A stretch of 64,000 bases of DNA, from assembly GCF_057098645.1 (NCBI RefSeq), contig NZ_CM169472.1; one strand, given 5' to 3'. This document shows positions 38,901 through 41,900 of this stretch, one piece after another. Made by a program: the position numbers. Every line of letters starts with the position of its first letter. Position 1 is the stretch's first letter.

Positions 38901-41900
38901 AAAACTTTAAAACGTTATGCATTTGCTTTATTGGCGAAAGCTCATTCTTTAGATGAAAGTATGATAAGCAATCAAACTTTTAATACATACAAAACGGTAT
39001 TGCTTGATTTTAATAATCTGTCTAATGAAGAGGCCAACCAGTTGCGCATAAGTTCGTTATATCGTGATATGGTCCGCTACGCACAATATCGTTTTTCTAA
39101 AGTTTTATCCGAGTGGACGCCAGACGCATGGGTGTAAAGATCGCAGCAGAATAATGGCATTGATGGCCCTGGCTCAGGCCAGGGCGGGCAATACCGATTT
39201 CTGCGAAGCGATGACGGTGGCAAGTGTAACCACGAAATGCGGTATCACTTGCTGTTTTCTGCCCTGAAGACTGGCCTCACTGTGCCGTCGAACTTTCAAT
39301 CAAATATATTGCGAGAGGGCGTGTTTGCGAGCCGCTTTCCAGAAACAGAAAAACCATTACCCCTGAAAACCGAAAAATGCCACAATATTGGCTGTTTATA
39401 CAGTATTTCAGGTTTTCTCATGGCATTAACCGCCGCGCTTAAAGCGCAAATTGCCGCCTGGTATAAGGCGCTTCAGGAACAGATCCCCGACTTTATTCCC
39501 CGTGCGCCGCAGCGGCAGATGATTGCGGACGTCGCCAAAACGCTGGCCGGAGAAGAAGGGCGGCATCTGGCGATTGAAGCCCCCACTGGCGTTGGGAAAA
39601 CGCTCTCCTATTTGATTCCCGGCATCGCCATTGCCCGCGAAGAGCAAAAAACGCTGGTGGTGAGCACCGCCAACGTGGCATTGCAGGATCAGATCTACAG
39701 CAAAGATTTACCGCTGCTGAAAAAGATCATTCCCGATCTTAAATTCACTGCCGCTTTTGGGCGTGGGCGCTACGTTTGCCCGCGTAATCTGACGGCGCTT
39801 GCCAGCACTGAGCCCACGCAACAGGATCTGCTGGCGTTTCTTGACGACGAACTGACGCCAAATAATCAGGAAGAGCAAAAACGTTGTGCGAAGCTGAAGG
39901 GCGATCTCGACACTTATAAATGGGATGGTCTGCGCGATCATACGGATATCGCTATAGATGACGATCTCTGGCGTCGTTTAAGTACCGACAAAGCCAGTTG
40001 CCTCAACCGCAACTGTTACTACTATCGCGAATGCCCGTTTTTTGTTGCTCGTCGGGAGATTCAGGAAGCGGAAGTGGTGGTGGCAAACCATGCGCTGGTG
40101 ATGGCGGCGATGGAAAGCGAAGCGGTATTGCCTGACCCGAAAAATTTACTGCTGGTGCTGGACGAAGGCCATCACCTGCCAGATGTGGCGCGGGATGCGC
40201 TGGAGATGAGTGCCGAAATCACCGCGCCATGGTATCGGCTACAGCTGGACTTGTTCACGAAACTGGTCGCTACCTGCATGGAGCAGTTTCGACCGAAGAC
40301 CATCCCGCCGTTGGCGATCCCTGAACGTTTGAATGCGCATTGTGAAGAGCTGTATGTGCTTATCGCCTCATTAAACAACATTCTCAATCTCTACATGCCT
40401 GCCGGGCAGGAAGCAGAACACCGTTTTGCGATGGGCGAACTGCCTGATGAAGTGCTGGAGATCTGCCAGCGGCTGGCAAAACTCACCGAGATGCTGCGTG
40501 GTCTGGCGGAGTTATTTCTTAACGATTTAAGTGAGAAAACCGGCAGCCATGACATTGTACGTCTGCATCGGTTGATTTTGCAGATGAACCGCGCGTTGGG
40601 GATGTTCGAGGCGCAAAGCAAACTCTGGCGGCTGGCTTCGCTGGCGCAATCTTCCGGTGCACCGGTGACCAAATGGGCGACGCGGGAAGAGCGCGAAGGG
40701 CAGCTACACCTCTGGTTTCACTGCGTGGGAATACGTGTCAGCGATCAGCTGGAAAGGCTGCTGTGGCGCAGTATTCCGCACATTATTGTCACCTCCGCAA
40801 CCTTGCGTTCGCTGAACAGTTTTTCGCGTTTGCAGGAGATGAGCGGGCTGAAAGAGAAAGCGGGCGACCGTTTTGTGGCGCTGGATTCCCCCTTTAACCA
40901 CTGCGAACAGGGCAAAATTGTTATTCCCCGGATGCGCGTTGAGCCTTCCATCGACAACGAAGAACAGCATATTGCTGAAATGGCGGCCTTTTTCCGTGAG
41001 CAGGTGGAGAGCAAAAAACATCTCGGTATGTTGGTGCTGTTTGCCAGCGGGCGTGCGATGCAGCGCTTTCTCGACTATGTGACGGATTTACGTCTGATGT
41101 TGCTGGTGCAGGGCGATCAGCCGCGTTACCGTTTAGTTGAACTGCACCGCAAACGCGTCGCCAACGGTGAGCGTAGTGTGCTGGTGGGCTTACAGTCATT
41201 TGCCGAAGGGCTTGATTTGAAAGGTGATCTGCTCAGCCAGGTGCATATCCACAAAATCGCTTTTCCGCCCATCGACAGCCCGGTGGTGATCACCGAAGGG
41301 GAATGGCTGAAAAGCCTCAACCGCTATCCATTTGAGGTGCAAAGCCTGCCGAGCGCCTCGTTTAACCTGATTCAGCAGGTTGGGCGACTGATTCGAAGTC
41401 ACGGTTGCTGGGGCGAAGTGGTGATTTACGATAAACGCTTGCTGACCAAAAATTATGGCAAGCGACTACTGGATGCATTACCGGTATTTCCGATAGAGCA
41501 ACCGGAAGTCCCTGAAGGTATAGTTAAAAAGAAAGAAAAAACGAAATCCCCACGCCGTCGGCGGCGTTAATGATGTGAGTCAGGTAAGGAGTCGTAAATG
41601 GACTATCGCAAAATCATTAAAGAGATCGGGCGCGGGAAAAACCACGCGCGCGATTTAGACCGGGATACTGCGCGCGGTCTGTATGCCCATATGCTCAATG
41701 GTGAAGTCCCTGACCTTGAGTTGGGCGGTGTATTGATTGCGCTGCGTATCAAAGGGGAAGGGGAAGCAGAGATGCTCGGCTTTTACGAAGCCATGCAAAA
41801 TCACACCATCAAGCTGACGCCGCCTGCAGGCAAGCCGATGCCGATTGTCATCCCCAGTTACAACGGCGCGCGTAAACAGGCCAACCTTACGCCGTTGTTG

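Follow-up and report, generated by a model that had tools for sequence, protein, structure and literature searches.

The dinG SOS box and its non-canonical left half lie intact beside the espX2 island in an O145:H28-like Escherichia coli

The DNA analysed here, hereafter the window, is a 64-kb stretch from an Escherichia coli of O145:H28-like type, with at least 99.95% identity to the O145 strain RM9872 around dinG. In K-12 the genes are ordered rhlE, ybiA and dinG, with ybiA divergent from dinG; the window, like O145:H28 strains, has in place of ybiA the type III effector gene espX2, oriented in the direction of dinG (Table 1). By alignment and BLAST, identity to K-12 ends after rhlE at 35182 and restarts at 39325, namely 25 bp upstream of the K-12 ybiA start codon and 95 bp before the dinG ATG. 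Among 5421 complete E. coli genomes, about 541 have the island-side junction. A 7-bp direct repeat, TTGCGAG (39309-39315 and 39325-39331), flanks the island/native junction and could be the microhomology of the recombination point, or chance. The IS2 insertion that splits espX2 was absent from all 5426 complete E. coli genomes of the collection, and the best genome matches to the island covered only 68% of it. The first-pass annotation had put the SOS box of dinG about 250 bp from the end of an 'island ORF'. The ORF, at 37668-39137, does end at such a distance from the box (249 bp from the stop), but the frame is only the 3′ part of the split espX2, and the island boundary itself is only 61 bp upstream of the box, the interval from stop to box being made up of 187 bases of island DNA (39138-39324) and 61 bp of native DNA.

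Table 1. Coordinates of the features around dinG and of the uvrB comparison site in the window
Feature	Position	Strand	Remarks
uvrB LexA operator, AACTGTTTTTTTATCCAGTA	16378..16397	.	canonical CTG-N10-CAG
Island replacing K-12 ybiA	35183..39324	+	espX2 and 187 bp of 3′ flank
IS2, 1331 bp	36473..37803	-	splits espX2; 5-bp target duplication TCTAA
espX2	37125..39137 in the intact O145 frame, plus the part upstream of the IS	+	
Native K-12-identical stretch before the box, 61 bp	39325..39385	+	island/native junction 39324/39325
Putative extended -10 element, TGcCACAAT	39378..39386	+	cross-species footprint; last T is box position 1
dinG LexA operator (SOS box), TATTGGCTGTTTATACAGTA	39386..39405	.	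sequence, matrix, published operator, conservation
dinG box, left half, TATTGGCTGT	39386..39395		degenerate; TTG at 39388-39390
dinG box, right half, TTATACAGTA	39396..39405		near consensus; CAG at 39401-39403
Candidate Shine-Dalgarno of dinG, AGG	39410..39412		
dinG CDS	39420..41570	+	716 aa; matches O145 and K-12 annotation and translation; operator-controlled gene

Between the dinG box and the ATG of dinG, a DNA-damage helicase gene, there are 14 nt. Its 20-mer is letter-for-letter the experimentally characterised box with TTG replacing CTG, as given in a passage of PMC8265657 that cites Lewis & Mount 1992 (J Bacteriol 174:5110); the same paper names the dinG site as a notable exception to the CTG core, and a motif search among UV-induced genes recovered the identical site (PMC3009722, Table 4). 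This agrees with the first-pass annotation, which had called a dinG SOS box with TTG for CTG at this very place. Its core reads TTG-N10-CAG and departs from the strict CTG-N10-CAG, which is a consensus trait of E. coli-type LexA operators and no requirement, non-canonical boxes being documented. Besides position 3, the left half is off consensus at positions 6, 7 and 9. Compared with the K-12 dinG operator, the 'asymmetric dinG operator' of Lewis & Mount 1992, the 20-mer, the 14-nt distance to the ATG and the 95 bp upstream of the ATG are identical, and the sole difference lies farther upstream, where the espX2 island replaces the divergent ybiA from 61 bp before the box.

For scoring, a symmetrised LexA weight matrix was derived from 15 published SOS boxes (PMC3009722, Table 4), with those of dinG and uvrB left out. 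When both strands of the 64-kb window were scanned with it, the uvrB box reached the top score of 23.5 bits and the dinG box ranked second at 14.6-14.8 bits, so the LexA motif scoring that had been proposed as a check recovered both sites. The dinG box (14.6-14.8 bits by leave-one-out) falls inside the range of the 17 published LexA sites, 6.9-27.8 bits. Within 38901-39720 the matrix gave no competing LexA site, the runner-up scoring 7.8 bits versus 14.3 bits for the box; a motif scan putting the dinG LexA site elsewhere, which the first-pass annotation had named as refuting its call, was thus not obtained. As background, 300 dinucleotide-preserving shuffles of the window were scored: sites reaching the dinG score occurred at a mean of 0.13 per shuffled window, or ∼2 × 10−4 per 100 bp, and the shuffle maxima had a median of 11.8 and a 90th percentile of 15.0 bits, the dinG box at 14.6 bits being below the latter. 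The best background sites in the window itself, at 13.2 and 12.4 bits, were slightly below the dinG box as well. By score alone the dinG box is thus borderline, and it is unconvincing without position and conservation; the case for it comes from its position directly before an SOS gene together with its conservation.

The two background sites are described here for completeness. The one at 41467-41486, TACTGGATGCATTACCGGTA (13.2 bits), is within the 3′ end of dinG, precedes the ybiB start by 111 nt and has CGG versus CAG as its right trimer. The other, GCCTGTGTTAGTTTCCAGTA at 62328-62347 (12.4 bits), has a CTG-N10-CAG core, is located between ldtB and ybiT and overlaps the ybiT start. Both scores are in the chance range, and neither site was accepted as a LexA operator.

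Splitting the dinG score by half-site gave 0.7 bits for the left half (positions 1-10) and 13.9 bits for the right half. The largest penalties fell on T at position 3 (−3.9 bits) and on C at position 7 (−4.0 bits), indicating that the non-canonical left half is more than TTG alone; changing T3 to C would raise the matrix score by about 5.9 bits. By heterology index, dinG is the weakest of the 17 tabulated sites (8.94), in a small table that includes dinG itself. Like the dinG box, the uvrB box is a 20-bp LexA site that precedes a gene of SOS repair, and each differs at five positions from the ideal palindrome TACTGTATATATATACAGTA. It carries CTG-N10-CAG, in line with its earlier description as canonical; its halves are balanced (11.0 and 12.5 bits), whereas those of dinG are not, and it ends 75 nt before its ATG (uvrB, 16473) versus 14 nt for the dinG box. 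A search of the window for TACTGTATATATATACAGTA with at most three mismatches returned no match; this search is too strict, since both real boxes differ from the palindrome at five positions. Conversely, the plain CTG-N10-CAG pattern had 21 matches in the window versus 13.6 expected, with uvrB listed and dinG not, so it lacks specificity and by design passes over dinG.

Within the species, the region from 39325 to 39440 (116 bp) is 100% identical to K-12, confirming the earlier statement that the native dinG control region is intact, and 5417 of 5421 E. coli genomes match it at 99% identity or more. Both of the one-mismatch variants that were examined differ at 39332 (C>T), outside the dinG box. 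A query carrying T3->C matched no E. coli genome at 100% identity, and the canonical CTG is hence absent from the complete E. coli genomes of the collection. A natural disruption of operator and promoter was seen in E. coli AHB21 (NZ_OZ547226.1, a UK blood culture isolate), where an ISL3-family ISKox3 (2561-3912 of the retrieved stretch) is inserted inside the dinG SOS box with an 8-bp duplication, CTGTTTAT, so that the left half is cut off from both the right half and the promoter.

Conservation beyond the species was explored in species-representative genomes, in which a DNA-pattern scan for the DinG peptide PRAPQRQMI yielded 120 loci across Enterobacterales, compared over about 120 nt upstream of dinG. 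The dinG box was present in 74 Enterobacteriaceae species, in most of them 14 nt from the ATG, and 19 of its 20 positions were nearly unvarying across them, with positions 1, 2, 4-6, 8 and 10-19 invariant or nearly so; the anchor regular expression fixed several box positions, and unanchored best matrix sites gave the same sequences. Salmonella, Citrobacter, Enterobacter, Kluyvera, Kosakonia and others have the box in the same place and share 19 of 20 bases with E. coli, differing by G at position 3 (TAGTGG...). Of the 74 species, 71 have G at position 3; T is confined to E. coli and E. albertii, E. whittamii has A, and C occurs in none. The degenerate left half is thus an old, family-wide state, of which TTG is the Escherichia version. 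Outside the family, canonical CTG boxes before dinG, in an arrangement that differs from that of the Enterobacteriaceae, occur in the Erwiniaceae (Pantoea, Erwinia and Mixta), where the box is TACTGTGTAAAAATACAG and lies 23-27 nt upstream of the ATG, and in Budvicia and Chimaeribacter, so LexA control of dinG reaches beyond the Enterobacteriaceae. In Xenorhabdus and Rahnella, the matrix found no LexA site before dinG.

The conservation is not confined to the 20-mer. In the 74 Enterobacteriaceae species, TGnCACAAT, the box and TTTCAGG form one conserved block, which begins with AAA[AG]TGnCACAAT some 12-13 nt upstream of the box, while the sequence farther upstream, any -35 included, is unconserved. 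An extended -10 promoter has the pattern TGnTATAAT. In the conserved element, T is found in 74 of 74 species and G in 72 of 74, n varies, and both the second base (A) and the last T of the hexamer occur in all 74. A simple consensus scan of 38900-39600 recovered no sigma-70 -35/-10 pair. From this footprint, which the dinG box abuts, we infer that dinG probably has an extended -10 promoter with a start near 39393-39395.

Part of the conservation could accordingly reflect promoter or 5′-UTR function and not LexA. Taken to its end, this would mean that the block is conserved because dinG has its promoter, start site and 5′ leader there, with the likeness to a LexA site incidental or of little weight. 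Such a reading would suit the overlap of the left half with the putative -10 end, discriminator and start site, a matrix score near the top of the background range, and the absence of fluorescence from a dinG reporter in Salmonella (PMC8072944). It is nevertheless very improbable, given that the right half by itself is a consensus half-site of 13.9 bits, that canonical boxes stand before dinG in Erwiniaceae, Budvicia and Chimaeribacter, and that the literature has an experimentally characterised operator with LexA-dependent induction (PMC8265657 and a review that names LexA as the dinG repressor).

The box also contains a small palindrome, CTGTTTATACAG (39392-39403), with CTGT and ACAG arms that are spaced as CTG-N6-CAG, and C at position 7 and G at position 9 are kept in 70 and 72 of the 74 species, respectively, although both are off the LexA consensus. 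These features would suit an action of LexA on dinG through another register, for example through the CTG at positions 7-9, or through a site elsewhere in the region. However, the N10 spacing is found in all 16 other published E. coli boxes (PMC3009722 table), the operator has been published in the 20-mer register (PMC8265657), and nothing else in 38901-39720 rises above the 7.8-bit runner-up, which leaves the likelihood of a different site or register close to negligible.

We are thus highly confident that the 20-mer is the operator through which LexA controls the dinG(-ybiB) transcription unit. For this operator reading, the present analysis showed the sequence with its score and position, that it is identical to K-12 and that it is conserved in the species and across the family, while LexA binding and SOS induction come from the literature. 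The dinG box is a textbook operator, and already known.

How the operator may work can be outlined from the putative promoter and start site. A LexA dimer would bind the 20-bp site with the right half supplying most of the binding energy and the left half little, and the outcome would be a low-affinity operator with fast LexA release. Reaching from the last -10 base to about +12, the box would cover the discriminator and the probable start, and bound LexA would exclude RNA polymerase owing to this overlap with the -10 end and the start. Upon DNA damage, self-cleavage of LexA would bring early derepression of dinG at low doses with a modest induction ratio. The degeneracy of the left half could come from its double role as discriminator and start site.

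Published measurements support a weakly repressed, readily induced dinG. The gene is UV-induced (PMC3009722), and in reporter assays its promoter was classed as 'early', with a low UV ED50 and an activity that peaked below 10 J/m2 (PMC5999292). Under ciprofloxacin, the maximum log2 induction of dinG was 1.69 versus 3.1-4.5 for dinB, dinI and dinD in the same experiment (PMC11002266). These data agree with the weak repression that the first-pass annotation had given for this operator. In Salmonella, the dinG box is 14 nt from the start codon, has a heterology index of 10.08 and was associated with a 10.6-fold induction (PMC8072944).

The pattern at position 3 raises a further possibility, which we put forward tentatively and with some doubt, that the non-C state is not an E. 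coli oddity and represents a tuned-weak operator maintained across the Enterobacteriaceae. Under such tuning, the left half would double as the -10 end, discriminator and start site of a promoter that has no conserved -35; a canonical CTG, adding ∼6 bits of LexA affinity, may be counter-selected, so that dinG would stay an early, low-threshold gene; and G, T and A would be non-C states exchangeable with one another, the Escherichia TTG being one of the three. Because position 3 shows no more than about two substitution events, the avoidance of C is a suggestion and is not statistically established.

Even with an intact operator, LexA might not be the sole control of dinG in this strain, if transcription reading through from espX2 or IS2 entered dinG independently of LexA. 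This is possible in principle because espX2 runs in the direction of dinG, whereas the K-12 ybiA is divergent; the two genes share a strand, with 282 bp between them, and a terminator scan of 38900-39600 returned no canonical terminator. On the other hand, the 3′ flank of the island folds stably (RNA fold, z = −2.9) and has a terminator-like hairpin at about 39220-39252 (GCAAGTG...CACTTGC) followed by TGTTTTCTG (to 39261), which the scan missed because the loop is too long, and this hairpin and tract may be the espX2 terminator. Moreover, IS2 is located 1.6 kb upstream and interrupts espX2, and operator-bound LexA could also stop a polymerase that reads through. We therefore consider a LexA-independent input of this kind unlikely.

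With LexA acting at the 20-mer as the preferred reading, the island would have left the control of dinG as it was: the espX2 island replaced ybiA to a point 61 bp before the operator, with the conserved control sequence untouched. That sequence spans 39374-39419, and the control region is intact since all of it, starting at ∼39374, is inside the retained native DNA. The dinG site is mainly useful as a quality check and opens no new question. For strains of the O145/O157 type, it means that the espX2 island halts 61 bp short of the dinG operator and that SOS control is as in K-12; for the Enterobacteriaceae, the family-wide non-C at position 3 versus the canonical box of the Erwiniaceae is a small addition to what is known of how sequence sets the strength of SOS operators.
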